Shown here: one piece after another, positions 5,007 through 30,040 of the stretch
Layout: each line of letters opens with the position of its first letter
How positions within the stretch are numbered: position 1 is the first letter of the stretch
Source: Mucisphaera calidilacus
GTDB lineage: Bacteria > Planctomycetota > Phycisphaerae > Phycisphaerales > Phycisphaeraceae
Length of the DNA stretch: 32,000 nt
Assembly: GCF_007748075.1 (NCBI RefSeq)
Contig: NZ_CP036280.1
Location: 2,280,001 to 2,312,000, forward strand
Direction: 5' to 3'
The notes under the pieces: generated by a model
Databases searched by the model: none
What the model saw: only the letters and a program-made list of their open reading frames with translations
What the model was told of the DNA's origin: nothing
Translations under genes and position numbers: made by a program

Positions 5007-5024
5007 ACGTTGGAGACACACACC

Positions 5025-14810: not shown

Positions 14811-16934
14811 TTAGCTCAGCTCCACCACCGCCTCCACCGGCGACGCACCGCCCAACGCCACCGAGCGGGCCAGCGGCGCCGCGCCCGCAGCGATTACCCT
14901 GTACCGACCCGCACGAACCTCACGCACGCCGGCATCATCCACCGTCTCCAGCCAGCGACGCTCGACCCGCACTTCGATCTCGGCCTCAGCGCCCGCCGCT
15001 GCCGTGATACGCCCGACACCGCCCAGCCAGCAGACCGGCTGGTCCGCTGCTCGCTCTTCATGTGCCAGATAAACCTGAACCGTCTCGGTACCCTCCCGGT
15101 CACCCACGTTCTTCACGCGCACCCGGCAGGTCAAGGAACCGTCCTCCGCCATCGCCGCGTCGATGGATTGGTAGGCATAACGCGTGTATCCCAGGCCAAA
15201 CCCAAACGGGTAGAGCAGGTCTTTCTCAGCGTATCGATAGGTTCGGCCCGCCATCGCGTAATCCTCGAACGCGGGCAGGTCCGTCGTCGCCATCGGCGCG
15301 CTCACGGGCATCCGCCCGCCCGGCTCCGCCGCTCCAAACAAGACGTCCGCAATACCCTCCCCGCCAGCCTCGCCCGGGTACCAGACGTGCATCACCGCCG
15401 TCGCCAGCTCGTGCAGTTCCGGGCAGGCCATCGCTGCGCCACCCGTGAGAAGAACCACCACGGGCGTGCCGGCTTCCGCCAGACGACGCACAAAGGCCAT
15501 CTGGTGCTCGGGCAGTTCAACCGCCTCGCGGTCGCCCAGTTGCGCACTCGCGATCGCGTCGCCCTCCTCGCCCTCTGTGAGAGGCGACATCCCCAGCGCC
15601 GCGATCACCACGTCCGACTTTCGCGCCTCCGCGCTGACCCAGTCCATGCTGTTGTCGTTGGGCCGATCAAACAGCACCGCCGGCCGATACTCGATGACCG
15701 TGCGCGGGTCTGCTGCATCCACGATCCCCTCGAGGATCGTTGTCATCCGCGAAGAACACCCGTAGTAGTTCCCCAGCAGCACGTCGACGCTCGCAGCACC
15801 CGGGCCACACACCAGGATCTTGCGTGCCGCCACGCCCAGCGGCAGCAAGTCGCCCTCGTTCTTCACCAGCACACAGCTCCGCGCCGCGGCTTCCCGCGCC
15901 AACGCCCGGTGTGTAGGCTGGTTCAGAACGTCCATCGACGGCGCGCGCGACGCACGCGTCGACGGGCTGTCAAACATCCCCAGCTTAAAACGCGTCCGCA
16001 GCAACCGCTCCAGGGAACGGTCCACGTCCTCCTCGGTCACCGCCCCGCGTTGAACCGCGGGCAGCAAGCCCTCGTACACGCAGCCACAGTTCAGATCACA
16101 CCCGTTCTTCAACGCGAGCGCGATCGATGCCACCGCGTCCTTTGTCACCTCGTGATGCTCGTGAAAATCCTTGATCGCCCAGCAGTCCGACACCACGTGC
16201 CCCTGGAAACCCCAGCGTCCACGAAGAATGTCCACAAGCAGCGTCTTGCTCCCGCAAGCCGGTTCGCCGTTCACCCGGTTGTAAGCGCCCATCACCGACT
16301 CCACGCCCGCCTCGACCAGCGTCTCGAACGCAGGCAGATACGTCTCCCACAGATCCTTCGGGCTCGCCACGGCATCAAAGTGATGCCGATCCGCCTCCGG
16401 ACCGCTGTGCACCGCGAAGTGCTTGGCGCAAGCCGACACGTCGAGTCGGCCATCGGCGTGCTCGCCCTGCAGGCCGCGGACAAAGGCACGTCCGAGCAAC
16501 GCCGTCAGGCACGGGTCCTCGCCATACGTCTCCTGGCCACGCCCCCAGCGCGGATCGCGGAAGATGTTGATATTCGGCGTCCAGAACGTCAGTCCCTGGT
16601 AACGATGCCGGCGATCGTCCTCGGCCGCCGCGTGATGTTTCGCACGGGCCTCCAGCGAGATGGTTTTGGCAACCGCCAATGCGAAATCCGGGTCAAAACT
16701 CGCCCCCAGACCGATCGCCTGTGGGAAGACGGTTGCCTTCCCCGCACGCCCCACGCCATGCAGGCATTCGTTCCACCAGTCGTACTCGGGCACGCCCAGA
16801 CGCTCGATCCCGGGCGTCCAGTGCAGCATCTGCTCGCACTTTTCCTTCAGCGTCATGCGACCCATCAGGTCCCGCACACGCTCATCAACCGGCAGAGTCT
16901 CGTCAAGGTACGCCACGGTTTCGGTCTGGCTCAT
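14811..16934 (-). CDS. Glycoside hydrolase family 3 (beta-xylosidase/beta-glucosidase type), cytoplasmic
   Basis: I start at ATG 16934 (MSQTETVAYLDETLPVDERVRDLMGRMTLKEK). GH3 blocks are present: WNECLHGV, FPQAIGLGASFD, NIFRDPRWGRGQETYGEDP, GHVVSDCWA (nucleophile Asp region) and a C-terminal Fn3-like tail. No signal peptide. Confidence 0.9.
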   Translation of the reverse strand: MSQTETVAYLDETLPVDERVRDLMGRMTLKEKCEQMLHWTPGIERLGVPEYDWWNECLHGVGRAGKATVFPQAIGLGASFDPDFALAVAKTISLEARAKHHAAAEDDRRHRYQGLTFWTPNINIFRDPRWGRGQETYGEDPCLTALLGRAFVRGLQGEHADGRLDVSACAKHFAVHSGPEADRHHFDAVASPKDLWETYLPAFETLVEAGVESVMGAYNRVNGEPACGSKTLLVDILRGRWGFQGHVVSDCWAIKDFHEHHEVTKDAVASIALALKNGCDLNCGCVYEGLLPAVQRGAVTEEDVDRSLERLLRTRFKLGMFDSPSTRASRAPSMDVLNQPTHRALAREAAARSCVLVKNEGDLLPLGVAARKILVCGPGAASVDVLLGNYYGCSSRMTTILEGIVDAADPRTVIEYRPAVLFDRPNDNSMDWVSAEARKSDVVIAALGMSPLTEGEEGDAIASAQLGDREAVELPEHQMAFVRRLAEAGTPVVVLLTGGAAMACPELHELATAVMHVWYPGEAGGEGIADVLFGAAEPGGRMPVSAPMATTDLPAFEDYAMAGRTYRYAEKDLLYPFGFGLGYTRYAYQSIDAAMAEDGSLTCRVRVKNVGDREGTETVQVYLAHEERAADQPVCWLGGVGRITAAAGAEAEIEVRVERRWLETVDDAGVREVRAGRYRVIAAGAAPLARSVALGGASPVEAVVELS

Positions 16935-17058
16935 CAAAGAATCCCATCTGAAAAAGATTGCGGGCCGAGTGTAGCGACTGTGTCTGTTCAACGCGTTCCT
17001 GCACAACCCAGACTCCTCGCCCCGGATCGCTTAGACCCCGGGACCCCCACTCCTCTCA

Positions 17059-17113: not shown

Positions 17114-17180
17114 CCCTGCATGCCTGAACGTGCTCAAGCCCACCAGACCATAAATCTGTGAAATCTCACGAATTTTTCTG

Positions 17181-17210
17181 GCAACCGGTTGCAGAACGGC
17201 AACCGGTTGC
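17181..17210. promoter_or_regulatory. Two tandem copies of the perfect 12-bp palindrome GCAACCGGTTGC (candidate LacI-family operators)
   Basis: Copies at 17181-17192 and 17199-17210, centres 18 bp apart. The whole 13-mer GGCAACCGGTTGC is repeated with spacer AGAAC. They lie 56-85 nt upstream of the LacI-family gene start (17266). The AAC-CG-GTT core matches the generic LacI/PurR-type operator architecture, with a central CG. Confidence 0.55.
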
Positions 17211-17265
17211 GCATGATGCATAGGTCAACAACGCTTCAGCATCACCTACAACGCAAACAACAGCC

Positions 17266-18345
17266 ATGAGCCTCAAAGCACCCCCCACGCTCTCCGACAT
17301 CGCACTCAAGTGCAATCTGTCCAAAGGCTCCGTGAGCCGGGCACTCTCCATGACCGCCGACGAGTGCCCCCTCAACCCGCGCACCCGCAAACGGGTCATC
17401 AAGGTCGCCCGCGAGATGGGCTACCGCGTCAACGCTCACGCACGAGCCCTCTCCAAGGGCCGATCCCAGAACATCGGGCTCGTCTACGAAGGCGCCCTCC
17501 CCGTCCTCGACTCTGTGTATCACGACATCATCGAGAGCCTCCTCCTCGAGCTGCGCGCACGCGACTACCACCTCTCGCTCATACCCATCGACGAAAAACG
17601 CAGCTGGGAAGACGCCATCCTCACCGGCCGCATCGACGCCTGCGTCTGCTTTCAGGAATACCCCGAGCACGTCGCCGAAACGCTCCAGCGACGCAACATG
17701 CCCATCGTCCTGCTCAACGGCATCTCCGACAAAGCCACGGGCGTCATCTGCCCCAACGACCGCCAGGGCACGGAGCTGGGTGTCAAGCACCTCGTTGACC
17801 TCGGGCACCGGGATATCGCCTTCGTCGCCGACATCGAGAGTGCTACACCGCACTACTCCATTCTCGAACGACGCAACGCCTTCCTCGATGCCATGCACGA
17901 ACTCGTCGGACCCGCCGACGAGAGCACACGGATCTACAACAGCACCATCAGCCTCGCGCGCGCCCTCCAGACCGGACACGCGCCCACCGCCGTACTCTGC
18001 TACTCCCACTTCGAGGCTATCCCTGTCATCCGACACATCCGACGTGCGGGCTTCGACATCCCGCACGACATCAGCCTCCTCGCCTTTAACGACGTCTTCC
18101 CCGTCGACGTGCTCGACCCCGCGCTCTCCTGTATCGCCGTCCCCGCAGAGGCCATCGGGCGTTCCGGCGCGCGGATGATCCTCGAGCAGATCGAAATCGT
18201 CGAGAGCGGCAGCGCGAGCAACCTCATCAACACCAGGCTCATCCTTGACGAAGAGCTTGTCCTGCGCGAATCAACCGCACCGGTCCGTGCCGGCGCAACA
18301 ACCAACGGAGTCCACGGTTCATCATCTCGTATCGCACCTTTTTAG
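17266..18345 (+). CDS. LacI family transcriptional regulator
   Basis: 359 aa. N-terminal HTH TLSDIALKCNLSKGSVSRALS...RKRVIKVAREMGYRVNAHARALSKGRSQNIGLV, then a periplasmic-binding-protein-like sugar-binding fold. Confidence 0.9.
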   Translation: MSLKAPPTLSDIALKCNLSKGSVSRALSMTADECPLNPRTRKRVIKVAREMGYRVNAHARALSKGRSQNIGLVYEGALPVLDSVYHDIIESLLLELRARDYHLSLIPIDEKRSWEDAILTGRIDACVCFQEYPEHVAETLQRRNMPIVLLNGISDKATGVICPNDRQGTELGVKHLVDLGHRDIAFVADIESATPHYSILERRNAFLDAMHELVGPADESTRIYNSTISLARALQTGHAPTAVLCYSHFEAIPVIRHIRRAGFDIPHDISLLAFNDVFPVDVLDPALSCIAVPAEAIGRSGARMILEQIEIVESGSASNLINTRLILDEELVLRESTAPVRAGATTNGVHGSSSRIAPF

Positions 18346-18359
18346 GGAGGAATCACACC

Positions 18360-19877
18360 ATGATTAGAATCACAGCCGCAGCCGCCATCGCAGCACTCAC
18401 CCTCGGCACCTCGTCTGCCCAGGCCGTCGATTTCGGCGTTCTTGACACGACCCTGTTCAACAACTCCGGATTCTCCTTTGGCTTCGATTCTCTCGACACC
18501 ACGGGCGACTCTTTCCTGCTCGACACCGCCCAGTTTGGTGGAGCTGGTGCCGACCTCCCCGCCATCGTCGATTTCGATCTTGGCTCCGCTCAGCTCGAAC
18601 TCAACCTGACGATCGATCCCCTCAACGTCGCTCAGGACATGCGCGTCGTCCTCGTTGATAATGACGGGCCGCTGGCGGGCGAGGAATTCCAGTACTTCGT
18701 CAACCTTGCCGGCCTCCCAGTCGGCACCCCCATCAACATCGCCCTGCCCTTCGCGACCAACGCGCCCGTCTTCACGCAGCCCGCCTTCGGCAAGCTGCCG
18801 GGTGACGGCGTCGAGAACTTCGGTCTCCGGCAGATCCAGTTCCAGAGTGCTTTTGGCTCGACCGACCGGCTTGTGCTCGACATCCAGAACGTCAAGGTCA
18901 CCGATCCCGAGGATCCGACCATCCTCGCCCTCACCCCCGCCACCTACGCGGCCTCGACAGACCGCTTCACCTTCGGCTCCTTCACTGTCGAGGGTGCCGT
19001 CAATACCGACAACGACACTTTTGTCATCGACGCCGACGTCACCAACGAGTTTGAATTCCCTGGCACCTCCTTCGGCGGGCTCGGCTTCAACCTCGATCCC
19101 TTTGACTTCGACGCCGACGCCTCCGAACTCGTCATCCGCGCCAAGGCACTCCCCGACAACGAGGCCGAGAAGTTCCGCGTCCTCATGAGTGACGTCGACG
19201 GCGACGACTCCGCGCCCGGCCTGGGCTCCGACGACTACGCCTTCGAAGTCGATATCGCCACCCTCTCCGACACCGAGTTCACCGAGATCATCATCCCCCT
19301 TGGGACCGGATCGGAGACCTCCATCGACGACAGCCCAACCTTTGGCTTCACCCATTTTGGCAACGGCCTCCAGGACTTCGGGCTCACCGGAATCCAGATC
19401 ACGGCCGTCGGTGCCGATGTGCTCACGCGGCTCAACATCGAGGTCGAATCCGCGGTCATCCGTGAACGCGAAGACTCGGGTCTCGAAGGCGACTTCAATA
19501 ACGATGGCGTCGTCGACGCCGACGACATTGACCTGCTCGTTGCGGGCATCATCGACGGCTCTGACAACCTCTACGACCTCGACCAGTCCGGCACCGTCGA
19601 CGCGGGCGACCTCGACTACATGGTCACCACGCTGCTCGGCACGCTCTTCGGCGACGCCAACCTAGACAGCAGCGTCGATCTGCTCGACCTCTCCGCACTC
19701 GCCTCCAACTTCGAGGGCACCGCCGGATGGGCGGGGGGCAACTTCAACACCGACACCACCGTCGACCTGCTTGACCTCTCGGCCCTCGCTTCCAGCTTCG
19801 GCCAGACGCCCGTACCCGAGCCCGCCTCCGCGGCTCTGCTCACGCTCACCGCCGCCGGCCTTGTCCGCCGACGCTGA
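18360..19877 (+). CDS. PEP-CTERM-anchored secreted protein: two copies of an unassigned beta-sandwich-like module plus dockerin-like repeats
   Basis: 505 aa. GGGAGG lies upstream, only 14 nt after the LacI-family gene stop. Signal peptide [23 protein letters not shown]-terminus [17 protein letters not shown]...[21 protein letters not shown]...[22 protein letters not shown], then [22 protein letters not shown] (PEP motif, TM helix, basic tail). Confidence 0.85.
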
Positions 19878-19904
19878 ACGATCACCGTGTTGTCACACAC
19901 ACTT

Positions 19905-19928
19905 CGCGACCGCCGAGAGACGGGCGCG
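19905..19928 (+). terminator. Weak hairpin after the 18360 gene
   Basis: CGCGACCG-ccgagaga-CGGGCGCG: an 8-bp stem with one mismatch, followed by aggTTTc. The T-tract is poor. Confidence 0.25.
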
Positions 19929-20002
19929 AGGTTTCAGGCTCACGCAAGAGCAACAACCCAAGCAGCACGCACTTCGTTCCGCGCACATCGGAAGGAAACA
20001 AG

Positions 20003-20893
20003 ATGTCACGTACCCGCCAAGCCTTCACCCTGATCGAACTCCTGGTGGTCATCTCCATCATCGCCCTGCTCATCGGGATCCTCCTGCCCGCGCTTTCTGC
20101 GGCACGCGAGACCGCGCGTTCGATCACCTGTGGTTCCGGGGAGCGGCAACTCGGCATCGCCTTGTTCGTCTACGCGGACGCCAACGCCGGCTACCTGCCT
20201 CTGGGACTTGATCGGGGACACATGAACGTCGGAGGATCAGGTATCCGAGATAACCAAGACGGGCAGAACTCTGACTGGGCTATGAAGCTTCTCAATATCA
20301 TGGAGCCCGGCTCGCCCGCCACCTGGGACGAAGAAGGGCAGCAGGGAGGCGGCACCGAGGGGCTCGCACGATTCTTCGCATGCCCGTCGGGCATTGAACA
20401 AGAAGGCGGCTTCAACCGCATCCGCCAGTACGCCACGCATCCGCGCGTGATGCCCGACAGTGGAACCGTCGACTTCTACCGCTTCTACACGACATCTGAG
20501 CAACAAGGCCTCTACAACAGCAAACTCGACGCCATCAAGAACCACTCCAGCATTCTCGCCCTCACCGACACATCCCAGAATGAAGACGACGAATGGAACG
20601 GCTCATCGACACTCTTCAACCTCAATGACAGCGGCATCCTTAAGGCCCCCTTCTGGGTCGCCGGACTCGAGAACAGCTCCATCTCCGGCCTCCAATTCGA
20701 CCAGTACGACCAGCCCATCGACGTCGGCAACAACGTCGACGCAGGTTACAGCGACTGGGGACAGATCCGCTTCCGCCACGGCGGCAACAACACCGCCAAC
20801 GCCCTCATGCTCGACGGGCACGTCGAGAACTTCAATTACTCGAGCAACACCAGCCACAACATCGAAGCGGACAACGTTTACGTTCAGTACTGA
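20003..20893 (+). CDS. Prepilin-type N-terminal cleavage/methylation domain protein, DUF1559 (H-X9-DG-like) pseudopilin
   Basis: [40 protein letters not shown] is the class-III signal typical of the planctomycetal DUF1559 family. The C-terminal region is [22 protein letters not shown]; here the His-to-DG spacing is 11, not 9. GGAAGGA lies upstream of the ATG. Confidence 0.9.
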
Positions 20894-20918: not shown

Positions 20919-22739
20919 ATGCCCAAGCCACTCACAACAACCCTGTGCCTCCTCCTGATCGGCCTGTGGATGGCCGGCAACACGAGCACCAGCCTCGGCG
21001 ACCCCGGCGTGATGACCATCAACAACGTCACGCCCGCGGTCGTCGTCGGCTGGGACCTCGACACCACCTGGCAGACAACGGGCGGCGAACTGGATCGCGC
21101 CACCGTCACGCGTCCCCGGGCCGACGCTCAGACACCCGATGAGATCACCTCCATCATTCAGCTCGACATCCCCGGCAACATCAAGCAACGCTGGGCCATA
21201 CAACTCCGCGCCGAGAACCAGACCGCCATCCGCAAGGGCGACACGCTCCTCGCCTCCTTCTCCATGCGCTGCGTCAAGTCCATGAACGGCTCCGCTTACG
21301 CGGGTATCGCTCTGGAACGCGCGGGCGAGCCCTATGACAAGTCCATACACCTCGAACTCAGTGCTCCTCAGATCTGGCAGCACTACAACATCCCCTTCAC
21401 CGCGCACGACAGCTTCGAGCCCGGAGAAGCACAACTCGTGCTCCAACTCGGTTTCGACACGCAGACCGTCCAGATCGCCAACGCCCGGCTCCTCAACTAC
21501 GCCGACAAACTCAGCCTCACCGACCTGCCCGCCATCGAGTTCACCTACCCCGGTCAGGAGGCCGACGCGCCCTGGCGTGCTCAGGCCGAGGCACGCATCG
21601 AACGACTCCGAAAAGCCGACCTCAACATCATCGTCACCGACAACCGCGGACGCCCCCTACCCGACGCACACGTCAGCATCCACCTCGATAACCACCGATT
21701 CATCTTCGGCACCGCCGTCGCCCTGGGCGGCATCGTCAATGACACGCCAGACGACAGGAAATACCGCGAGATCCTCAAGCAGAACTTCAACCACGTCGTC
21801 TTCGAGAACGCCATGAAGTGGAAGAACCACGGCATCGGCACACCCGAGCAGATCGACGACGCCCTCGCGTGGCTCAGTGACAACAACCTCCCCGTCCGCG
21901 GACACGTGCTGATCTGGCCCGGCTGGAACGTCATCCCCGAAGACGTGCGGGCTCTCGAGAATGACCCCGAGACGCTCCGCGCCGTCGTTAACGACCGCGT
22001 CCGATCCACCGCCTCACGCTACCGCGGACGCATCACCGACTGGGACGTGATGAACGAGCCCTTCACCAACCACGACCTTATGGACATCCTTGGCTACGGC
22101 GAGATGGCCGAGTGGTTCCGACAGGCCGAGCTTGGCGACCCCGACGCTCCACGCTTCATCAACGACTACGGCATCCTCGCCGCCGGCGCACGGCCAACAC
22201 GGCATCAGGAACACTACGAGCAGACGATCCAGCGACTCATCGACGAGGGCGCTCCCATCGACGGCATCGGCATGCAGGGGCACTTCGGCTGGAATCTCAC
22301 CGGCCCCGAACGGCTTCTCGAGATCCTCGACCGCTTCGCTGCCTTCGGTCTGCCCATCCGCGTGACGGAGTTCGATATCGACATCACCGACCGGCAGCTC
22401 CAGGCCGACTACACCCGCGACTTCATGACCACCCTCTTCAGCCACGCCTCCGTCGATGGCATCCTCATCTGGGGATTCTGGGAGAACCGGCACTGGCGCA
22501 GCACCGCCGCGCTCTACAACGCCGACTGGACGCCCAGGCCCCACGCGCTCGTCTGGCAGGACCTTATCCACAACCACTGGCACACGAACGAGTCCGCCAC
22601 CACTGACCGGCGCGGCCGAGTAACGCTCCGCGGGTTCCACGGCGACTACACGGTCACCATCAGCCACGACAACCGCACGTCAACCCACAAGGCCACCATC
22701 AACCCCGGCGAGAACACGCTGACCATCGAACTGGACTAA
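20919..22739 (+). CDS. Secreted GH10 endo-1,4-beta-xylanase with N-terminal CBM4_9/CBM22-like module
   Basis: I start at ATG 20919 (MPKPLTTTLCLLLIGLWMAGNTSTSLG, a signal peptide) inside track ORF 20460..22739. GH10 blocks are present: FNHVVFENAMKWK, VRGHVLIWPGW, WDVMNEP (acid/base Glu) and RVTEFDID (nucleophile Glu). Confidence 0.9.
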   Translation: MPKPLTTTLCLLLIGLWMAGNTSTSLGDPGVMTINNVTPAVVVGWDLDTTWQTTGGELDRATVTRPRADAQTPDEITSIIQLDIPGNIKQRWAIQLRAENQTAIRKGDTLLASFSMRCVKSMNGSAYAGIALERAGEPYDKSIHLELSAPQIWQHYNIPFTAHDSFEPGEAQLVLQLGFDTQTVQIANARLLNYADKLSLTDLPAIEFTYPGQEADAPWRAQAEARIERLRKADLNIIVTDNRGRPLPDAHVSIHLDNHRFIFGTAVALGGIVNDTPDDRKYREILKQNFNHVVFENAMKWKNHGIGTPEQIDDALAWLSDNNLPVRGHVLIWPGWNVIPEDVRALENDPETLRAVVNDRVRSTASRYRGRITDWDVMNEPFTNHDLMDILGYGEMAEWFRQAELGDPDAPRFINDYGILAAGARPTRHQEHYEQTIQRLIDEGAPIDGIGMQGHFGWNLTGPERLLEILDRFAAFGLPIRVTEFDIDITDRQLQADYTRDFMTTLFSHASVDGILIWGFWENRHWRSTAALYNADWTPRPHALVWQDLIHNHWHTNESATTDRRGRVTLRGFHGDYTVTISHDNRTSTHKATINPGENTLTIELD

Positions 22740-22745
22740 GCCGCC

Positions 22746-25289
22746 ATGCTGTACCACGGACACGTCCGAAGCGCTCTCGCGATCGCCTGCCTCACCGCAA
22801 CCACCGCCGTCGCCGGTGCAGCCGAGATCACCCTCTCCGATTTCAACAACGCCGGCTTCGACTACACCTTCGACAACTTCACGCAGACCCTCGGCCCTGA
22901 CGTCCTCAGACTCACTGACACCAGCGACGGCTGGGGGGGAGGCGGCATGAACGACGCCTACGACCTCTCGGCTTTCGCCGAAGCAAGGATCGTCGTCGAC
23001 GCCATCGCCAACCCCGACAACCGCGTCGACACGTTCACGATCGAACTCATCGACACCCACGGCAATTCAGGCAAGTGGGACTTTGCCACCACTGACCTGC
23101 TCCCGACCGGCAGCACACGACTCGTCGCGCGTAAGACCCTGGAGAACCCCGAGTCAGGCATCAACGACTACCAGAGTCTCGACCTCGCCAACATCACCAA
23201 ATGGCAGCTGCTCGGGCAGTGGAATTCGCCTTCGCCCGTCGACCTCAGCTTCGACAACGTCATCATCTCCACCGACGCCCCTCCGCCGCCCGCCTACCCC
23301 GGCGCCGAACCCGACGCCCCCTGGCGCGCCGAGGCCGCGGCACGCATCGAGCAGCACCGCAAGGCCGGTCTGAGCCTCATCGTCACAGCGGGCAACGCCG
23401 CCCCGGCCAGCGACGTCACCGTCCGCGTCGACATGACACGGCACGACTTCACCTGGGGAACCGCCGCCGCCGCCTGGCGCATTGAGGAGAACAACGCCGC
23501 CAGCCAGACGTACAAGGACAAACTCCACGAGAACTTCAACGCCGTGACGCTTGAGAACGCCCTCAAGTGGCCGCCGCTCGAAGGCGAGTGGGGCCACAGG
23601 TTCGACAAGCAGACCTCCGCTGCCGCACTCGACTGGCTCTCCGACAACAGCTTCGACGTCCGTGGCCACGTCCAGGTGTGGCCGGGTTATGACAACCTCC
23701 CTGGATCGGTCAGAACTAAGATCGACGCGTTCAACAGCACTGCCTCCGCCACAGTTCGGGACCAGCTCCGCGCCGAGATCCAGACCCTCATCGAGGATCA
23801 CATCACCGAGCTCGCCCTGCACACCGACGGGACCATCACCTGGTGGGACATGGTCAACGAGACCCGCGCCAACCGCGACCTCATCGAGATCTTCGGCGAA
23901 TCCGAGGTCGCCCACTGGTTCAACCTCGGCAGACAGGCCAACCCCGACACCCCTCTGTTCCTCAATGACTACGGCATCCTCTCCTCGGGTGGGAGTACCA
24001 ATTCCAACAACCAGCAGTTTTACGAAGACCAGATCCAACGCATCATCGACGACGGCGGAGCCATCGACGGCATCGGCTTCCAGGCTCACTTTGACGAGAA
24101 CAGCATCACCGGTCCCGCAGCAATCAACACCATCCTCGACCGATATGCCGCGTTTGGCCTCGACCTCCACATCACCGAGTTTGACCTCGATACCACCGAC
24201 GAGGAGCTCCAGGCACAGTACACCCGCGACTTCCTCACGATCATCTTCGCGCACCCCGACGTCGACGCCTTCACCATGTGGGGGCTCTGGGAAGATGCCC
24301 ACTGGAAACCCGACGCGGCGATGTACCGTAACGACTGGTCCATCAAGCCCAACGGCATCGCCTATCAGGACCTCGTGCTCAACCAGTGGTGGACCGACGA
24401 GCAAACCTCCACCGACGCTGAGGGTCAGGCCGCCGCCCGCGTCTTCCTTGGCACACACACCATCACGCTCGAACACCGGGGCATCACCCAGACTTACCTA
24501 GGCGTCAACATCGACGACGACACCAGCCTCGATCTCCAGCTCGCTGACGGCTACGACGGAACCATCCACGCCGACGTCACCAACACCTCAGGCAGACTCC
24601 ACGTCGCAGGCGACGGCATCATCGGTCGACTCAGCCTCGCGGGCAGCTACACCCAAATCGACGATGCGACCCTCGTACTCGATCTCGAGCCGACCGGGCG
24701 CGACACCCTCTTCGCCGACACGATACACCTCGGCGGAACCCTCGAACTGCGCGTCGCCTTCGGCTACACGCCCGCGCCCGGGACCCCACTGCCCATCTTC
24801 TTCGCTAACCAGTACACCGGTGCCTTCGACGACGTGTTCGCCGACCGACTCGTCGTCGAAACCTACACCGCCGGACAGCTCTTTGGCGTCAACGTCCTCG
24901 CAATCCTGGGCGACTTCAACCTCGACCAGCAACTCACGGCCGACGATGTCGACATCCTCCTCGCCAACCTCGGCAACCCCGCCTACGACCTCACCCGCGA
25001 CAACACCGCCGACCACGACGACCTCCACCACCTCATCACCTTCCTGATGCAGGGCACCCCGGGTGACGCCAACCTCGATCACACCGTCGATCTTCTCGAC
25101 CTCTCCATCCTCGCCGCCAACTTCGACACCGCCGGCAACTGGACCGCGGGCGACTTCAACAACGACAACAGCATCAATCTCCTCGACCTCTCGATCCTTG
25201 CCGCCAACTTCGGCAGGAGCACCATCCCCGAGCCCGGCACACTCACCGCGCTCCTCTTGTCCACCACACTCTGCCGTCGTCGCCGATAG
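22746..25289 (+). CDS. Cell-surface GH10 xylanase: N-terminal unassigned module, GH10 domain, beta-strand-repeat region, dockerin-like repeats and PEP-CTERM anchor
   Basis: 847 aa with signal peptide MLYHGHVRSALAIACLTATTAVAGA. GH10 blocks: FNAVTLENALKWP, VRGHVQVWPGY, WDMVNET, HITEFDLD. C-terminus GDFNLDQQLTADDVDILL...[21 protein letters not shown]...GDFNNDNSINLLDLSILAANFG, then TIPEPGTLTALLLSTTLCRRRR. Confidence 0.9.
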   Translation: MLYHGHVRSALAIACLTATTAVAGAAEITLSDFNNAGFDYTFDNFTQTLGPDVLRLTDTSDGWGGGGMNDAYDLSAFAEARIVVDAIANPDNRVDTFTIELIDTHGNSGKWDFATTDLLPTGSTRLVARKTLENPESGINDYQSLDLANITKWQLLGQWNSPSPVDLSFDNVIISTDAPPPPAYPGAEPDAPWRAEAAARIEQHRKAGLSLIVTAGNAAPASDVTVRVDMTRHDFTWGTAAAAWRIEENNAASQTYKDKLHENFNAVTLENALKWPPLEGEWGHRFDKQTSAAALDWLSDNSFDVRGHVQVWPGYDNLPGSVRTKIDAFNSTASATVRDQLRAEIQTLIEDHITELALHTDGTITWWDMVNETRANRDLIEIFGESEVAHWFNLGRQANPDTPLFLNDYGILSSGGSTNSNNQQFYEDQIQRIIDDGGAIDGIGFQAHFDENSITGPAAINTILDRYAAFGLDLHITEFDLDTTDEELQAQYTRDFLTIIFAHPDVDAFTMWGLWEDAHWKPDAAMYRNDWSIKPNGIAYQDLVLNQWWTDEQTSTDAEGQAAARVFLGTHTITLEHRGITQTYLGVNIDDDTSLDLQLADGYDGTIHADVTNTSGRLHVAGDGIIGRLSLAGSYTQIDDATLVLDLEPTGRDTLFADTIHLGGTLELRVAFGYTPAPGTPLPIFFANQYTGAFDDVFADRLVVETYTAGQLFGVNVLAILGDFNLDQQLTADDVDILLANLGNPAYDLTRDNTADHDDLHHLITFLMQGTPGDANLDHTVDLLDLSILAANFDTAGNWTAGDFNNDNSINLLDLSILAANFGRSTIPEPGTLTALLLSTTLCRRRR

Positions 25290-25295
25290 CGTCGA

Positions 25296-27830
25296 TTATC
25301 GCTCGATCACGCACGCCCAGTCTTCATCTGAACCGTGCGGTGCACGACCGATACCCTCCACACTTCCGCCACGCACACGACGGACCGTTCCCTCCATCTG
25401 TTCACCCCCCTCGCGCGGGTCAAACCACCGCACCGACAACCAGCCCCGCGCGTCCGAGAGGTCCAGCCGCACGTCCTGACGATCCGACATGTACACCACA
25501 TACACCTCGCCTGGCTTCGCCAGGCAGTGCACGTGCCCCAGATCCTCCGTCGTCACGATCAGATCGTCACGACTCACCATCTCACGCACGGGCAGGCTCC
25601 TGAAGAACGTCAACGCGTGTCCCGCCCAGCGCCAGCTCGCGTCACGACTCCGCCAGTCCTCGCACACCAGATCATTCTCAGGCAGCTTGTACCCAAAGTA
25701 ATACTCCACACCTGCGCCACCCGCCATCAGGTTCCCCCACAACGTCCGCTTGCGCACGTCCGCCGCCGTGTAATCCACCATCGACGGGTCAAAACCCGGA
25801 TACCCAGCGTCAGGCGGCACGCCCGTCGTCGCATGGCCCTGCTCGTCATTCGTCACGATCCACGTCTTCCCCGACGCCTCCGATGCACGCAGCCACTTCA
25901 GCGTCAACGCGTGCACCTTCGACCAGTCATTCTGAAGACTCGCCGACGTCAGCACCGAACGATCGCCGAGCAACGGCTCGTACACCTCGTCCTGTCGATG
26001 CGGGTAGGAGTGCACGTCGATCGGATGGTCATAGGCGTCGATCTGGTCCAGGTAGGCGCCCATCGCACGCAGCTGCGCTGGCGTCTGCGTGTTCTCCTCT
26101 CCCAGAATCCATGTGAGCACCGGCAGGTGTGCGTACCGAGCCACCAGCTCCCGCAGATAAAGCTTTCGCTCCAGCCCCAGCTCCCCGCCGTCCAACGCTC
26201 GCGGGACATCCGACACCTGATCAACACCGCGAACCAGGTCGTCGTTCTCCGTCTCCTGCAGCTTGAAGTGCAGGTGAATCCCACGCCGCTGCGCGTGATC
26301 AAACACGATCCCCCACTGGTCCAGCTTCGAGCAGTCAAACCGATGCGTCCGCACCCGCGACACATAAGGCCAGACATTATCCCCGTCCCCTCCGGCGTTG
26401 TACGTCAGGAACGAAACCGTGTTGCACCCCGTCGACGCCAGGTAATTCAATGCACCGATCAGACCCTTGCCCTGATCGCCACGCCACACCGGATCACCCT
26501 CACGCCAGTCACCCACATGCGCCGTATAGGTCTTGAGCGGCCCGCGACGAATCGTTGCTACCGTCCCGTCAAAGTCCTCATACGCCAGCAGCGTCTCGGG
26601 CGAATCGGGACCCGCCTTCAGAAACACCGCATCACTCCCCAGATGACGCGGGTAGCGCTCACCCAGATAAACCACACGCCCCGCACCCCGGAAATCGGAC
26701 ACCCCCTTGTCCGTCTCAGCGACCTCGAACGAACCCCGCAGCCCGTTGTAGGCCGCAACCGGCTTGCCATCGTCCGAGACCGCGCAGTTCGGCCCCGTGT
26801 GCAATGAGACGCTGTAATGCCACACACCAGCACGGTCAGGCGAGAAGTGCGCCCGCCACGTCGTGCCCGACGCCGCCCCCGTCTGCCCCGCATTACCGTC
26901 CGCCGCAAAGTACCCGGGCACCGTGTAGACCGGGAGGCCCGACGCGTGCCGGAAACGAGCCGTCATCCGGTAATCCGTGAACGGGTTGATCGCGCCACCC
27001 AGTTCATGCGCGAACGGACCATCCAGTGAAAGCGTGGTCGTGTGCCACACACGACGCTCGCCGCTGATCGTCACCTCCCCCGAGCCAGCCGCGCCGTCAG
27101 GCAGCACCTCCGCCTCAGGCAGCGCTCCCGCCGCCACACGAACCTCCGGACCCGTCGATCCCTCCGGGTGCTCATAGTCCGGGTCCAGCGTCATGAACCA
27201 CTTGTCAAACTCCGTGCCGTCCTCACGCATCGAGAACTGCACCACGTGCTCGCCCGCCTCCTCGATGTCCAGCCAGATCTGGCCCGGCACGCCCGTGTGC
27301 ACCTCCGCCGTCCGCTGCTTGCTGTCCCACCACCACGTGCGCTTCGCCGTCCATTGCAGACGCCGACCACTCTCGGGCCATTCGCCATTCAAACCCACGT
27401 GCAGCCCGTTGTCTTCCGTCCCCGTCGAATAGATCCGTGCCCAGACGTAATAACGACCGGGCTCGTCCACCCGTACCCGGTAACTCAGCACCGCCATCGT
27501 CCCCGGCTCGTGCGCAATATTCTCACCCACCACCAGCGGGTCGTCATGCGTCCGACGCGTGTCAGGCAGCACCTCCAGATACGCCTCCCCCGAAGCGCCC
27601 CGCGCATGATTATCGTCCGGGTCACTGCTCGACTCAGGCGTCTGGTCAAGTGTCACCAGCCGCCACGAACGAACCTCCCCCTTGGTCTGATCAAAAGCAT
27701 GCTCCGCCTCGACAGCGATCACACCCTCAACCGCACCAAAGACCACGTCCTCAGGCACCTGAGCCCACGCACCCGCGACACCCCAGAACCAACCCAGCCA
27801 GACCACAAAAACCAGCCTCGAAACAGACAC
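25296..27830 (-). CDS. Secreted DUF5060-domain glycoside hydrolase (GH5-like TIM barrel) with N-terminal CBM-like domain and C-terminal collagen-binding-type beta-sandwich
   Basis: DUF5060 pattern NPFTDYRMTARFRHASGLPVYTVPGYFAADGNAG...WRAHFSPDRAGVWHYSVS, then a TIM-barrel-like part (GCNTVSFLTYNAGGDGDNVWPY, HLHFKLQETEND, ILGEENT). I prefer GTG 27830 ((M)SVSRLVFVVWLGWFWGVAGAWAQ, a signal peptide). The track start GTG 27887 is the alternative. Confidence 0.85.
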   Translation of the reverse strand: MSVSRLVFVVWLGWFWGVAGAWAQVPEDVVFGAVEGVIAVEAEHAFDQTKGEVRSWRLVTLDQTPESSSDPDDNHARGASGEAYLEVLPDTRRTHDDPLVVGENIAHEPGTMAVLSYRVRVDEPGRYYVWARIYSTGTEDNGLHVGLNGEWPESGRRLQWTAKRTWWWDSKQRTAEVHTGVPGQIWLDIEEAGEHVVQFSMREDGTEFDKWFMTLDPDYEHPEGSTGPEVRVAAGALPEAEVLPDGAAGSGEVTISGERRVWHTTTLSLDGPFAHELGGAINPFTDYRMTARFRHASGLPVYTVPGYFAADGNAGQTGAASGTTWRAHFSPDRAGVWHYSVSLHTGPNCAVSDDGKPVAAYNGLRGSFEVAETDKGVSDFRGAGRVVYLGERYPRHLGSDAVFLKAGPDSPETLLAYEDFDGTVATIRRGPLKTYTAHVGDWREGDPVWRGDQGKGLIGALNYLASTGCNTVSFLTYNAGGDGDNVWPYVSRVRTHRFDCSKLDQWGIVFDHAQRRGIHLHFKLQETENDDLVRGVDQVSDVPRALDGGELGLERKLYLRELVARYAHLPVLTWILGEENTQTPAQLRAMGAYLDQIDAYDHPIDVHSYPHRQDEVYEPLLGDRSVLTSASLQNDWSKVHALTLKWLRASEASGKTWIVTNDEQGHATTGVPPDAGYPGFDPSMVDYTAADVRKRTLWGNLMAGGAGVEYYFGYKLPENDLVCEDWRSRDASWRWAGHALTFFRSLPVREMVSRDDLIVTTEDLGHVHCLAKPGEVYVVYMSDRQDVRLDLSDARGWLSVRWFDPREGGEQMEGTVRRVRGGSVEGIGRAPHGSDEDWACVIER

Positions 27831-27969
27831 GTCATGCCCTTTCAATAATCTAACTCGTCCCCAGTGTAACGCCGCCCGTGATCCCACACCCTCTCAACCC
27901 TCACCCACACCAGACAGCCAGAGGCCGACGGCCGGATCTCGTGATCAGAGGGATGCCCGAGAGGATGTG

Positions 27970-29283
27970 TCAGTCGTCAGACTGGACTTCCTTGAGGGCG
28001 AAGGCGGAGACGGCGGCGAGGGCGCAGAGGATGGCGAAGAGGGCGAGGACGGCGGGTGTGCCGTAGGCCTGCGCGATGATGCCGAAGCCTGAGGTCAGGA
28101 GCAGGAGGGCGCCGATGATGGTGTTGGAGAGTGCGGTGTAGGCGGCGCGGGTTTCGGGTGTGGCCATGTCGACGAGGTGGACGGACCGTCCGAGGCGCAC
28201 GCCCTGGTAGGCGATCATGAGGGCGAAGAGGCAGAACGGGAGCATGAGGTAGAGGGTTGATGCGTTGGGCATAATCCATGCGAGCGTGGCGGTACTGGCG
28301 AGGATCGCCGCGGCGATGAGTGCGGAGAGGATGAGGACCCATCGGCTCGAGCGGTCGGCGAGTCTGCCCCACGCGTAGGTGCTGAGGAGTGCCGCGAGTG
28401 AGCTGGCGATCACGAACCACCCGAGTCGGCTGTAGCCGGCGTCGCGTTGGTCGAGCATGACGATGTAGGGCGGAGCGATGGCGGTGGTGGTGAGGAGCCC
28501 GCGTGTGAGGATGTAGATCAGGAGTTGCCGGTCGGTGGTGAGGCGTGTGAGGTTCTCGCGGACGACGCTGAGCGGTGTGCGTCCGCCCTCGGTCGATCCT
28601 GCTTCTTCATGGAGACGGGCCATGAGCAAGGCGGCGGTGATCCAGAGGGTGGCGGCGAGAAGAAGGACGGCGACGATGACGGGAATGGTGCGCGGGAGGA
28701 TGCCCGTGGCCAGAAGGATGCCGAAGGTGAGGACGCCAGCGGCGGCGAGCGTGCTGGCGGTTCCGGTGGCGGTTCCGCGCGTGGCCTTGGAGACGGTCTT
28801 GCCCAGGACATCCTTGTAGCTGACGGAGCAGACGGAGCGCCCAAGGGCGAAGACGGCGAGGAGTGCGGTGATGGCGATGCCTGCCTCGGCGCCGCGGAGG
28901 AGCATGGCGGCGGCAGCGATACCCATGACGGCGAGGGCCTGGACGAGTGAGCCGGCGGCCCAGGCCCACTTGCGCTGGGGCATGGATCGGATCCATCCGG
29001 AGCTGACGAGCTGGGGCAGGAGTGATCCGGCCTCGCGGACGGGGACGAGGAGGCCGACGAATCCGGCGGGTGCGCCGAGCGCGTTGACGAGCCAGCTGAG
29101 GACGAGTTTGGGATCAATGAGCCCGTCGCCTGTCTTGGTGCATGCGAGGGTGGCGACGTGGGTGAAGAAGTTGGCGGGTTGTTCCCTGCAGGCTTCGTCG
29201 GGGATGTCCCGGCAGGCCCTGCCGTCATCCTCGGCGGTGAGGAGTTGGTGGGCCCGTTCGAGGGTGGTTGAGGAGTCGGTCAC
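27970..29283 (-). CDS. MFS transporter (family with conserved N-terminal Cys-containing cytoplasmic segment)
   Basis: The track ORF extends to 29517 through a Pro/Thr-rich stretch that overlaps the upstream gene. I start at GTG 29283, 10 nt after stop 29294. DDGRACRDIPDEACREQPANFFTHVATLACTKTGDGLIDPKLVLSWL is followed by about 12 hydrophobic helices. Confidence 0.8.
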   Translation of the reverse strand: MTDSSTTLERAHQLLTAEDDGRACRDIPDEACREQPANFFTHVATLACTKTGDGLIDPKLVLSWLVNALGAPAGFVGLLVPVREAGSLLPQLVSSGWIRSMPQRKWAWAAGSLVQALAVMGIAAAAMLLRGAEAGIAITALLAVFALGRSVCSVSYKDVLGKTVSKATRGTATGTASTLAAAGVLTFGILLATGILPRTIPVIVAVLLLAATLWITAALLMARLHEEAGSTEGGRTPLSVVRENLTRLTTDRQLLIYILTRGLLTTTAIAPPYIVMLDQRDAGYSRLGWFVIASSLAALLSTYAWGRLADRSSRWVLILSALIAAAILASTATLAWIMPNASTLYLMLPFCLFALMIAYQGVRLGRSVHLVDMATPETRAAYTALSNTIIGALLLLTSGFGIIAQAYGTPAVLALFAILCALAAVSAFALKEVQSDD

Positions 29284-29293
29284 AGGGGATAGG

Positions 29294-30040
29294 TTAGCGG
29301 CCCGCGGTGGCGGGGTTCCAGTTGTCGAGGGTGGGCGGTTGTGCTGAGGCGGGTCGTTCGTAGGACGCGCTGGTGGGAGCGATGGTGGCGTGGCCGTCGG
29401 CGAAGGTGGTGGAGAGTTTGTCGCTGTGTCGCAGGGCGAGGTCGTCGTCGGGGTTGACGTTGTAGAGGTTCCAGTAGTGTGCCATGACGTGGTTGGCGTC
29501 GTCCTCGACTTCGCCATGGATCACGGTCGCTGAGGGGGCGGGGAGTGCGCGTGCGGAGTGCCAGAGGTTGCCGTTGAGTGCGATGTTTTCTTCGGGGTCG
29601 TCAGGAATCAGGCTGGGGTAGACGGATTGCCCGTAGGAGAAGTCGGTGGTGGCGGTTCGCTGGTCTTCCGGGCAGCGGAGGTGGGTGTTGTAATAGGCGA
29701 GGGCGTCGGGGTTGTCTTCGAGGTAGAAGTCGCCGAAGAGTACAGCGGTTCGGACGGAGGGTGCGCCGAGATAGGGAGCGAGCTGGAGGTCCCATTCGAG
29801 GGTGTCGGAGAAGCCGCCGTGGTTGGTGGGCGGGAAGCGGTCGTCGTGGTCGTGGAGATAGATGATGAGTGCCTGGGCGATGGATCGTGTTTTGGCGAGA
29901 CAGTTCACGGCGCGGGCATGGGAGCGAGCGGCGGCGAGCGCGGGCAGGAGAATGCCGATAAGCAGCGCGATGATCGAGATCACGACGAGGAGTTCGATCA
30001 GGGTGAAGCCCGACGAGGATCGGTGGATCGGGTGATTCAT
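29294..30040 (-). CDS. Prepilin-type N-terminal cleavage/methylation domain protein, DUF1559 (H-X9-DG) pseudopilin
   Basis: [47 protein letters not shown], with C-terminal RHSDKLSTTFADGH (exact H-X9-DG). Its start overlaps the upstream stop (ATGA at 30040-30037). Confidence 0.9.
   Translation of the reverse strand: MNHPIHRSSSGFTLIELLVVISIIALLIGILLPALAAARSHARAVNCLAKTRSIAQALIIYLHDHDDRFPPTNHGGFSDTLEWDLQLAPYLGAPSVRTAVLFGDFYLEDNPDALAYYNTHLRCPEDQRTATTDFSYGQSVYPSLIPDDPEENIALNGNLWHSARALPAPSATVIHGEVEDDANHVMAHYWNLYNVNPDDDLALRHSDKLSTTFADGHATIAPTSASYERPASAQPPTLDNWNPATAGR

Follow-up and report, generated by a model that had tools for sequence, protein, structure and literature searches.

A DUF1559-type prepilin-like gene in a LacI-associated xylan locus of Mucisphaera calidilacus: indications of a locus-dedicated role

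In a 32-kb stretch of the genome of Mucisphaera calidilacus (hereafter the window, i.e., the whole 32,000 nucleotides analysed), a gene for a DUF1559-family type IV prepilin-like protein (20003..20893, plus strand; hereafter the pilin gene or copy 1) lies inside a xylan locus. The assignment was made from the open reading frame (ORF), from Pfam and NCBIfam matches and from an alignment of 115 relatives; the whole window was annotated with Pfam and has a G+C content of 63.8 %. We consider a role of the pilin-like protein that is dedicated to this locus and co-regulated with it as likely, with a probability of about 0.8. Seven orthologues and two paralogues were all located in LacI-associated cassettes with glycoside hydrolase (GH) genes, which speaks against a housekeeping function and for one specific to the locus. 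Co-regulation is supported by putative operators that occur only at locus promoters, in the window and in two related loci, and by short gaps, of 25 nt from the pilin gene to the first of the two xylanase genes that follow it and of 6 nt between these two.

The xylan locus and its conservation

The operon starts with a gene for a LacI-family repressor (17266..18345, plus strand; Pfam LacI, Peripla_BP_1 and Peripla_BP_3), followed after 14 nt by the gene for a 505-aa secreted PEP-CTERM protein (18360..19877, plus strand). A gap of 125 nt separates the latter from the pilin gene, and 25 nt lie between the stop codon of the pilin gene (20891-20893) and the next ATG at 20919. This is the setting that the earlier note on this DNA had described, a pilin gene on the same strand between the PEP-CTERM protein at 18360 and a GH10 pair, 25 nt before the first xylanase. 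GH10a is an endo-xylanase of 606 aa with a signal peptide and a C-terminal CarboxypepD_reg-like domain (20919..22739, plus strand; Glyco_hydro_10, 8e-48). Six nucleotides further on begins GH10b, an endo-xylanase of 847 aa (22746..25289, plus strand; Glyco_hydro_10, 1e-42; Dockerin_1) with an unclassified N-terminal module, dockerin-like repeats and the PEP-CTERM tail IPEPGTLTALLLSTTLCRRRR, which is probably anchored at the cell surface. Divergent from lacI is a GH3 glycosidase gene of the beta-xylosidase/glucosidase type (14811..17006, minus strand; Glyco_hydro_3, Glyco_hydro_3_C, Fn3-like). The genes of an ATP-binding cassette (ABC) sugar transporter (11588..14744, plus strand), identified with Pfam as SBP_bac_1 (11588-12970) and two BPD_transp_1 permeases (12967-13851, 13851-14744), encode the probable inner-membrane importer of the locus; orthologues of the binding protein were present in xylan loci of related genomes (62 % identity in L001, 52 % in L005). 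Convergent with the operon lies a gene for an 863-aa protein with DUF5060, apiosidase-like, GH115_C-like and collagen-binding-like domains in Pfam (25296..27887, minus strand). It may be an accessory glycosidase for decorated xylan, as its position suggests. Pfam gave no match to a TonB-dependent or SusC-like transporter or a SusD-like lipoprotein in the window, none is annotated in nine related loci, and no carbohydrate esterase was annotated with Pfam among the genes of the window locus.

The genomic context of these nine relatives was looked up, and the orthology of the neighbours was determined by BLAST. Orthologues of the pilin with 42-57 % identity were located in seven other Phycisphaerae genomes, all in LacI-linked xylan loci with a GH10 gene, and in six of the seven this gene follows immediately 3' of the pilin gene. 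The gene order LacI, 505-like protein, pilin, GH10a, GH10b was present in L001 (57 % identity) and L008 (42 %), as well as in L007 (43 %), there with an additional one-module 223-aa protein and a GH43. L003 (53 %) has GH43, 505-like protein, pilin, GH10a and GH10b, with LacI divergent nearby. In L005 and L006 (both 47 %) the pilin gene and a GH10b-type gene are divergent from LacI, a 226-aa protein and the 505-like protein (with GH10 and GH43). The seventh locus, L092 (42 %), has the 505-like protein, the pilin and the xylose isomerase XylA2 in a row, divergent from GH52, GH10 and LacI. The gene directly 3' of the pilin gene is a GH10a orthologue in L001, L003, L007, L008 and the paralogous locus L093, and a GH10b orthologue in L005 and L006. 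Orthologues of the 505-aa protein (38-61 % identity) adjoin the pilin gene in five of the seven loci and belong to the divergent operon in the other two; LacI orthologues were detected by BLAST in all related loci (31-52 % identity).

Paralogues at 34-36 % identity repeat the layout of LacI, PEP-CTERM protein, pilin and GH gene. L093 (36 %) contains LacI, an unrelated 251-aa PEP-CTERM protein, the pilin and a GH10a-type enzyme, and in L094 of Algisphaera agarilytica (34 %) LacI is followed by PEP-CTERM proteins of 212 and 251 aa, a prepilin of 271 aa, a DUF1559 protein of 275 aa and a GH16 with PEP-CTERM tail. A second cassette in L007 consists of a DUF1559 gene, PEP-CTERM proteins of 195 and 475 aa and a GH30, and on a Phycisphaeraceae chromosome (L017) a pilin gene lies behind two PEP-CTERM genes and in front of a third. 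The genes outside the cassettes vary (LpxB and a helicase, GyrA, a Rep protein, Fic, SUF); since the outer flanks differ from locus to locus, the association of pilin and xylan genes is kept by selection. The genome of M. calidilacus Pan265T, a strain with fimbriae, has 3,486,541 bp, a G+C content of 63.9 % and 2,913 genes, 85 of them for glycoside hydrolases (PMC8882080), so that a GH gene as immediate neighbour is an event of about 3 % per gene (85/2,913, ~2.9 %). Because it recurs orthologously in seven genomes with differing outer flanks, the arrangement is, by comparison of the loci, considered to be beyond chance. A scan of metagenome contigs revealed no close orthologues of the pilin.

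Palindrome scan and pattern search revealed a LacI-type operator-like palindrome, TGCAACCGGTTGCA, twice in the divergent GH3/lacI promoter region (17180..17211; GGCAACCGGTTGCA at 17180 and GGCAACCGGTTGCG at 17198) and once 5' of the ABC transporter operon (11459..11472; TGCAACACGTTGCA); no palindrome of this type was found by either search in the 125 nt between the 505-aa protein gene and the pilin gene. L001 and L003 each carry three copies of the core GCAACNNGTTGC (L001 at 2196, about 7146 and about 7164; L003 at 4739, 6405 and 8340), always in promoter regions of xylan genes, and the paired sites of L001 at about 7146 and 7164 have the equivalent place 5' of lacI. Elsewhere the core was present in one of 89 other loci examined. 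In L005 to L008, which are more divergent and in which LacI is only 31-35 % identical, the search did not reveal the motif. We interpret TGCAACCGGTTGCA as a predicted operator that would define a small xylan regulon in three genomes.

Directly 3' of the 505-aa protein gene, in the gap before the pilin gene, folding and covariation analysis revealed a GC-rich hairpin (19902-19931) with TTTC behind it, a terminator- or attenuator-like intercistronic element (19902..19935, plus strand) with a minimum free energy z-score of -2.96. A hairpin with a T-run is located at the same place in six orthologous loci (window, L001, L003, L007, L008, L092). Compensatory changes were observed in 8 of 10 pairs, 90 % of the cells were paired versus 25-45 % with the partners slid, and none of 500 shuffles matched the observed values; the segments had been trimmed by hand, which biases toward a positive covariation result. 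A generic scan for sigma-70 promoters and intrinsic terminators gave no more than background and, owing to the short T-run, did not pick up this conserved hairpin. The pilin gene certainly shares a transcript with both xylanase genes. It is probably expressed by read-through of the attenuating hairpin from the LacI-controlled promoter; an internal promoter may be the alternative. The hairpin itself is probably a partial terminator or an RNA-stability element setting the expression ratios in the operon, and its place 3' of the 505-aa protein gene would fit a lower expression of the pilin relative to that gene.

PEP-CTERM proteins were the most constant neighbours of the pilin genes, in the loci of copy 1, in the loci of the second window copy described below, in the second cassette of L007 and in L017. 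The C-terminus of the 505-aa protein carries, as judged by eye, PEP, a hydrophobic stretch and RRR, and scored just below the cut-off of PF07589 (18.0 versus 20.7 bits). Inspection by eye revealed clear tails of this type also in GH10b and in a 230-aa protein encoded near copy 2, and a VPTPS variant in the adjacent 331-aa protein. An unclassified module of ~135 aa is present twice in the 505-aa protein (residues ~59-190 and ~238-367), next to dockerin-like repeats. It recurs once in PEP-CTERM proteins of 223-235 aa in the related loci and, in weaker form, in the N-terminal ~190 residues of GH10b orthologues (E=2e-6 and 4e-3). No known carbohydrate-binding module (CBM) was matched by the modules at the N-termini of the 505-aa protein, GH10a and GH10b. 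As the module is shared with the xylanase GH10b, it suggests itself as a candidate for a new xylan-binding module, and the 505-aa protein as a putative non-catalytic surface xylan-binding protein. The combination of dockerin-like part and PEP-CTERM tail was observed on at least 15 proteins of M. calidilacus including a GH30, with 40-73 % identity over the C-terminal part of the 505-aa protein; it looks like a standard surface-sorting module of this organism. PADLOC assigned neither the pilins nor the PEP-CTERM proteins to a defence system.

The pilin-like protein, its second copy and its family

The ORF starts with ATG, is preceded by a Shine-Dalgarno-like GGAAGG about 8 nt upstream and encodes 296 aa. 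The protein scored above the cut-offs of PF07596 (DUF1559/SBP_bac_10; 33.0 versus 23.3 bits, residues 33-279 on profile positions 2-263 of 268), PF07963 (N_methyl; 28.3 versus 21.2 bits) and TIGR02532 (24.7 versus 16.3 bits), which confirmed the earlier view of a DUF1559-type prepilin-like protein. TIGR02532, the prepilin N-terminal domain, was the sole NCBIfam assignment above threshold; the GspG, GspH and ComGC equivalogs remained far below their cut-offs, with matches confined to the first ~50 residues. The class III (type IV prepilin) signal is complete: a basic leader of seven residues, MSRTRQA, with A at position -1 precedes FTLIELLVV, with F+1, E+5 and P+22, and a hydrophobic alpha-1N of ~20 residues. 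A homologue search yielded 7,798 matches with a best identity of 57 %; relatives are named at NCBI as 'type II secretion system protein', 'PulG-like' or 'DUF1559 family PulG-like putative transporter'. In the alignment of the 115 nearest relatives, A occupies position -1 in 70 sequences and G in 45. F8 to L31, which include E+5 (E12) and P+22 (P29), as well as R258, H259 and D271 are invariant, and C43, C127 (102/115), Y57, P66, W92, Y143, D189, Q192, D246, R256, G272 and H273 are nearly so. The pair C43/C127 probably forms a disulfide of the pilin type. The C-terminus carries an H-X11-DG motif. The spacing of 11 residues in this copy and of 9 in the second copy was read as the earlier note had given it, but its hint that 11 is odd did not stand: the spacing is 11 in 84 of the 115 relatives, 10 in 10 and 9 in one. 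It is, in this alignment, a trait of the clade and not of the window copy; as a mark of an aberrant copy it was ruled out. TIGR04294 (H-X9-DG) returned no match at E≤0.01 for either prepilin copy of the window, the presence of the model in the library being unconfirmed.

A structure prediction with AlphaFold2 (AF2) from an alignment of 17 orthologues gave an unusable model (predicted local distance difference test score, pLDDT, 48.9). The alignment of 115 sequences resulted in a pLDDT of 89.9 and a predicted template modelling score of 0.86, with an alpha-1 helix of 50 residues and a mostly irregular head of ~240 aa that ends in a beta-hairpin with H-X11-DG-H. The sole, weak Foldseek match was that of alpha-1 to the type IV pilin 5vxx, and the sequence profile matched among the sequences of the Protein Data Bank (PDB) only alpha-1 of PilA, geopilin and GspG (chain 5wda). 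Without the N-terminal helix the head of copy 1 reached 18.7 bits for DUF1559, below the cut-off of 23.3, and the head of the second copy alone had no DUF1559 score; a Pfam scan of the heads at E≤10 gave no T2SSG, solute-binding protein (SBP) or CBM family. Both copies are, on these scores, divergent DUF1559 members, since copy 2 is below the cut-off, as is the head of copy 1. A profile search of 1.84 billion cluster representatives at 50 % identity retrieved 312,408 clusters at E≤1e-3, 203,299 at E≤1e-10 and 796 at E≤1e-30; judged from these numbers, the broad DUF1559 family is huge and the full-length subclade small. According to published counts, P. limnophila has 68 paralogues (PMC10632474) and R. 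baltica 74 (PMC2754498). The earlier note had spoken of a hugely expanded family without a defined function, in agreement with these counts and with the literature searched, which assigns no function to DUF1559. Proteins of this type have been termed 'solute-binding proteins' (PMC2754498, PMC4807772), and the older Pfam name is SBP_bac_10.

The second prepilin-like gene of the window (29294..30040, minus strand; copy 2) encodes a distant paralogue of 248 aa with 32.3 bits for N_methyl and 21.1 bits for DUF1559, under the cut-off of 23.3. Its motif is RH-SDKLSTTFA-DGH, i.e., H-X9-DG. Both copies share residues 1-57 alone, with 61 % identity, and their heads could not be aligned by BLAST. Copy 2 is preceded by genes for two PEP-CTERM-type proteins (30037..31721, minus strand; tails by eye, weak in NCBIfam), one of 331 aa (30037-31032) and one of 230 aa (31029-31721), the latter with weak NCBIfam matches to choice-of-anchor-M and TIGR03769. 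Start and stop codons overlap by 4 nt between the genes of the 230-aa and 331-aa proteins and between the latter and copy 2; an overlap between the second PEP-CTERM protein and the pilin is also present in the orthologous loci. Further upstream the 3' part of a gene for a Cys-rich (CxxC[H]) membrane protein of ~130 aa runs off the end of the window (31859..32000, minus strand; tblastn with the L089 homologue, 53 % over 47 aa, E=1e-13), which is the conserved first gene of a four-gene cassette. Copy 2 orthologues have 70 %, 55 % and 43 % identity, and orthologous trios of 230-aa-like protein, 331-aa-like protein and prepilin were located in L089, L090 and L091, the pilin always after two PEP-CTERM proteins. 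About 10 nt 3' of copy 2 follows a gene for a transporter of the major facilitator superfamily (MFS; 27970..29283, minus strand; Pfam MFS_1, start re-estimated with G+C at third codon positions, GC3). Its orthologue in L089, 65 % identical, lies 4 kb off, and the adjacency to copy 2 is not conserved in other genomes. No carbohydrate-active enzyme (CAZyme) was found in the orthologous loci L089, L090 and L091. The analogous glycan context that had been proposed for copy 2 was not recovered: its partners are the Cys-rich protein and two PEP-CTERM proteins, there is no CAZyme and the MFS transporter is not conserved. Of the earlier claim of a substrate-specific, non-housekeeping role, the locus-specific part is borne out by the seven orthologues and two paralogues in LacI-GH cassettes, whereas the context of copy 2 is not one of glycans. 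The factor common to both contexts is, as far as gene content goes, an upstream PEP-CTERM surface protein and not a glycan enzyme. In L089, an extracytoplasmic function (ECF) sigma factor/NrsF anti-sigma factor pair and the MFS orthologue were observed near the cassette. There are hints that the role of the copy-2 cassette is metal- or stress-related rather than glycan-related.

The neighbourhoods of prepilin-like genes were also sampled across the Planctomycetota-Verrucomicrobiota-Chlamydiota (PVC) superphylum. Eighty loci were taken from among the matches listed in a genome-contig scan for the N-terminal pattern; genes were called with our own GC3-based caller, which found the pilin in 62 loci and missed it in 18, and near and far genes were compared by Pfam. 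The 110 immediate neighbours fell into 162 Pfam families. Among them were DUF1559 (5), Laminin_G_3 (4), LacI-type (3), AraC, sulfatase, heparinase and 3-keto-disaccharide hydrolase (2 each), versus DUF1559 (2) and sulfatase (2) among 148 far genes; a regular expression for PEP-CTERM tails matched 4 of 218 near and 1 of 175 far genes. The carbohydrate signal in these 62 loci was weak and non-significant, with small counts in the predicted direction. Eleven Phycisphaerae/Sedimentisphaerales loci had among 45 neighbours three LacI-type, three Laminin_G_3 and two heparinase genes, one GH29, one GH130 and a solute:sodium symporter family (SSF) transporter; one of these loci contained a secretin and T2SSE pair and several contained housekeeping genes.

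Candidate roles of the pilin-like protein

For the locus-dedicated role we propose tentatively, at clearly less than even odds, a minor (pseudo)pilin specific to this locus, which would link a shared type IV filament machine to PEP-CTERM proteins for their export or display. Xylo-oligosaccharides would lift the LacI repression at the TGCAACCGGTTGCA operators. The pilin-like protein would enter the inner membrane, a prepilin peptidase would cut off the leader of seven residues, and the product would become a low-abundance subunit of a fibre made by a machine of the T2SS (type II secretion system) or T4P (type IV pilus) kind encoded elsewhere in the genome. Its variable ~240-aa head would link this shared machine to the 505-aa protein and the anchored GH10b, both of which would be carried or docked across or at the outer membrane, with the pilin as cargo- or locus-specific pseudopilin adaptor. 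We infer the processing by prepilin peptidase, the incorporation into a fibre and the direction and partner of the head. Incorporation is favoured because E+5 and P+22 are invariant. We give export or display a slight preference over capture or import, since no partner is as constant as the PEP-CTERM proteins, which accompany even copy 2 in its non-glycan cassette.

Several observations weigh against the proposed coupling. The pilin reached 24.6 bits with the GspG model TIGR01710 (cut-off 88.85), over residues 7-55 only, and a Foldseek search of the AF2 model against the PDB yielded nothing at E≤0.001, so that no binding function can be read from the fold. The conserved terminator-like hairpin renders co-transcription of the pilin gene with lacI and the 505-aa protein gene uncertain. 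In L092, the gene 3' of the pilin encodes a cytoplasmic xylose isomerase, and across the PVC sample the neighbours of prepilin-like genes are mixed. Prepilin peptidase, assembly ATPase, platform protein and secretin genes were absent from the window and the related loci examined; T2SS/T4P core genes, to which the earlier note had pointed as a check, have no counterpart within the 32 kb, and the machine has to be assumed. We know of no cargo-specific pseudopilins encoded beside their cargo in the characterised T2SS (Gsp/Pul). Finally, export and import are not discriminated by the present data.

In the import direction, the protein would be a minor pilin specific for one substrate, with a head that binds xylan or xylo-oligosaccharides and is displayed on a retractile type IV filament, a glycan 'fishing rod'. 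By retraction the polymer would reach a secretin or pass through it into the periplasm, and its degradation would be completed there by GH10a, GH3 and the ABC importer, in a manner similar to ComP/ComGC in the uptake of DNA or to the cellulose-binding pilins of Ruminococcus. We regard this as hardly less probable than export or display, likewise at less than even odds. The same synteny and co-regulation speak for it as for export or display, and in none of the nine loci is a TonB-dependent or SusC-like importer present, which leaves the function of outer-membrane uptake 'missing'. Planctomycetes internalise dextran, and rods built of pilins have been proposed (Boedeker 2017, as cited in PMC12078418, PMC12673574 and PMC8882080); Akkermansiaceae need pili for the acquisition of mucin or fucoidan (PMC13174399), and cellulose-binding, substrate-induced type IV pilins occur in Ruminococcus and Fibrobacter (PMC3672088). 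Some relatives bear the NCBI label 'DUF1559 family PulG-like putative transporter', and the number of paralogues resembles, in our view, that of polysaccharide utilization loci (PULs) in Bacteroidota. However, the constant neighbours are PEP-CTERM proteins and not glycan enzymes, with the copy-2 cassette lacking a CAZyme and a conserved transporter; neither Foldseek nor the Pfam scan of the head detected a carbohydrate-binding fold, no gene for a retraction ATPase or secretin is nearby, and M. calidilacus has no crateriform structures (PMC8882080). A capture without long fibre, by a tethered periplasmic binding protein whose head hands xylo-oligosaccharides to ABC or MFS transporters, is improbable. 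Its model is the Sulfolobus bindosome with sugar-binding proteins behind class III signals. The Pfam name SBP_bac_10 and the term 'solute-binding proteins' in PMC2754498 and PMC4807772 agree with it, as do transporter genes that adjoin in places: in the window the MFS gene, 10 nt from copy 2, in L005 an ABC operon that follows GH10, and in Verruconatronum the uronate symporter beside a pulG-like gene. The transporter adjacency is however not kept among orthologues, and the locus already has a classical SBP_bac_1 binding protein. An SBP-like fold behind the class III signal was not detected, neither by Foldseek of the AF2 model (pLDDT 89.9, no match at E≤0.001) nor by Pfam (no SBP family at E≤10), and the invariant E+5 and P+22 point to filament assembly.

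That the protein is a generic, interchangeable (pseudo)pilin placed beside xylanases by family expansion and drift has little probability. The family is enormous and its contexts are mixed, with 110 neighbours in 162 Pfam families and far-gene controls that differed little, and some Phycisphaerae paralogues lie beside housekeeping genes or at a secretin/ATPase locus. Drift is nevertheless difficult to reconcile with an association of pilin, GH10, 505-aa protein and LacI that is still present at 42 % identity and spans seven genomes whose outer flanks are unrelated, and with a layout that recurs with other GH families, when GH genes make up only ~2.9 % of all genes. Moreover, the head is conserved within the orthogroup and unalignable between the window copies. 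Very improbable is a membrane-anchored enzyme, e.g., a xylan esterase or deacetylase, for which the prepilin signal would be a mere anchor and D189, Q192, D246, R256, R258, H259, D271 and H273 a catalytic or metal site. These polar residues are invariant or nearly so in the 115 relatives, and the locus has no annotated carbohydrate esterase; their conservation in paralogues of unrelated context fits a structural site better than a catalytic one, an example of the former being the Ca2+ site of GspG, and neither Foldseek nor Pfam detected an enzyme fold or family.

Further features of the window and related systems

The GC skew of the plus strand was -0.05 to -0.39 from position 1 to ~27,900, whatever the orientation of the genes, and flipped to +0.16 to +0.47 within ~150 nt (27850-28000), where 82 nt separate two minus-strand genes. 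Such a switch, of origin type (cumulative minimum) and unusually large in amplitude, could mark an origin of replication, the breakpoint of an inversion or a join in the assembly; clustered DnaA boxes were not found at the flip. Three membrane genes of the HupE/UreJ family lie in a row on the minus strand (8197-8841, 8808-9524, 9422-10678), with overlapping ORF calls and approximate starts, preceded by a gene with a peptidyl-prolyl isomerase domain (Rotamase_2; 10432-11466, minus strand). The region 8197-11466 may be a Ni/Co transporter cluster. Three consecutive plus-strand genes (3681-4922, 5010-5693, 5690-6568) had no Pfam match; the first of them has a coiled-coil segment rich in Lys and Glu, and after the third comes a sulfatase gene (6679-8205, plus strand).

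The architecture of LacI, PEP-CTERM protein, prepilin and GH genes, with operator and hairpin, is not described in the literature searched and is a new variant of the organisation of polysaccharide utilization loci. As a practical signature for PUL-like loci in Phycisphaerae, the order of LacI, PEP-CTERM protein(s), prepilin-like gene and GH gene may serve. DUF1559 is among the largest paralogous families of Planctomycetota, and P. limnophila has two essential members of it. For the CAZyme clusters of Planctomycetota a functional characterisation is lacking, with 30-34 % of their genes unassigned (PMC11131199); according to reviews, the 'fishing rods' of polysaccharide uptake are hypothetical, their components not yet identified (PMC12078418, PMC12673574). 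The locus offers a specific pilin-like gene tied to xylan, with a putative regulator and operator, surface partners and the axenic strain Pan265. Speculative, and on the whole unlikely, is the wider idea that DUF1559-type pseudopilins are the PVC counterpart of SusC/D, modular, regulon-embedded subunits that, locus by locus and together with PEP-CTERM proteins, make a shared filament machine specific for one polysaccharide or another ligand, for 'selfish' import or surface display. If true, it would explain the dozens of paralogues per genome and the acquisition of polymers without SusC/D in Planctomycetota and Verrucomicrobiota.

Among known systems, the Klebsiella Pul secreton exports the surface pullulanase and is part of the maltose regulon. 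The major pseudopilin PulG/GspG of the T2SS resembles the pilin in the class III signal, in the alpha-1 helix with FTLIE and P22 and in the link to a regulon of polysaccharide-degrading exo-enzymes. In contrast, the window protein fails TIGR01710 (24.6 versus 88.85 bits), has a head of ~240 versus ~100 aa and no PDB match, is not accompanied by a gsp operon and belongs to a family whose paralogues number in the tens in a genome and all have loci of their own. A further relation is to the DUF1559/H-X9-DG family (PF07596; TIGR04294) of the PVC superphylum, with a full-length Pfam pass, the N-terminal prepilin domain and the C-terminal strand R-x-R-H...DG-H; the pilin is part of the same massive expansion, yet of a divergent Phycisphaerae subclade with H-X11-DG in 84 of 115 members and a head that alone is under the cut-off. 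The nearest precedent comes from Verruconatronum alginivorum (Verrucomicrobiota), where the pulG-like pseudopilin gene pgaptmp_000050, with 67 paralogues, is located in an alginate-induced operon, the upregulation of which on alginate was seen in the proteome; a further pseudopilin was over-expressed on alginate, and the authors read pgaptmp_000050 as part of a T2SS (PMC13274419). Common to both organisms is a pseudopilin-like gene in an operon for polysaccharide degradation that is substrate-induced or, in M. calidilacus, predicted to be so, in V. alginivorum within a cluster that was horizontally transferred with its neighbours. The cases differ in phylum, substrate and neighbours, there polysaccharide lyases and an SSF symporter with PEP-CTERM proteins unmentioned, and are likened by description and not by sequence.

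ComP and likewise ComGC are pilins of DNA uptake, and ComP provides uptake specificity. In Ruminococcus, Pil3 is induced 19-fold by cellulose, and CbpC, GP25 and Pil3 bind cellulose (PMC3672088); in the PVC bacterium Akkermansia, the acquisition of glycans depends on the mucin utilization locus (MUL) pili (PMC13174399). With ComP, CbpC/GP25/Pil3 and Akkermansia MUL2 the window pilin would share, as proposed here, the role of a subunit through which a common filament machine becomes specific for one polymer. Those genes belong, unlike the pilin gene, to pilus-biogenesis clusters rather than catabolic operons and have not dozens of paralogues, and the sequence similarity to the window pilin stops at alpha-1. 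In organisation the locus is comparable to the PULs of Bacteroidota, in which a regulator, a non-catalytic surface protein, a surface endo-xylanase and glycosidases or importers are clustered and the set is repeated for each glycan. It differs from them in that SusC/SusD and a TonB-dependent transporter are absent, PEP-CTERM replaces lipoprotein anchoring and a pilin-like protein occupies the 'envelope' slot.

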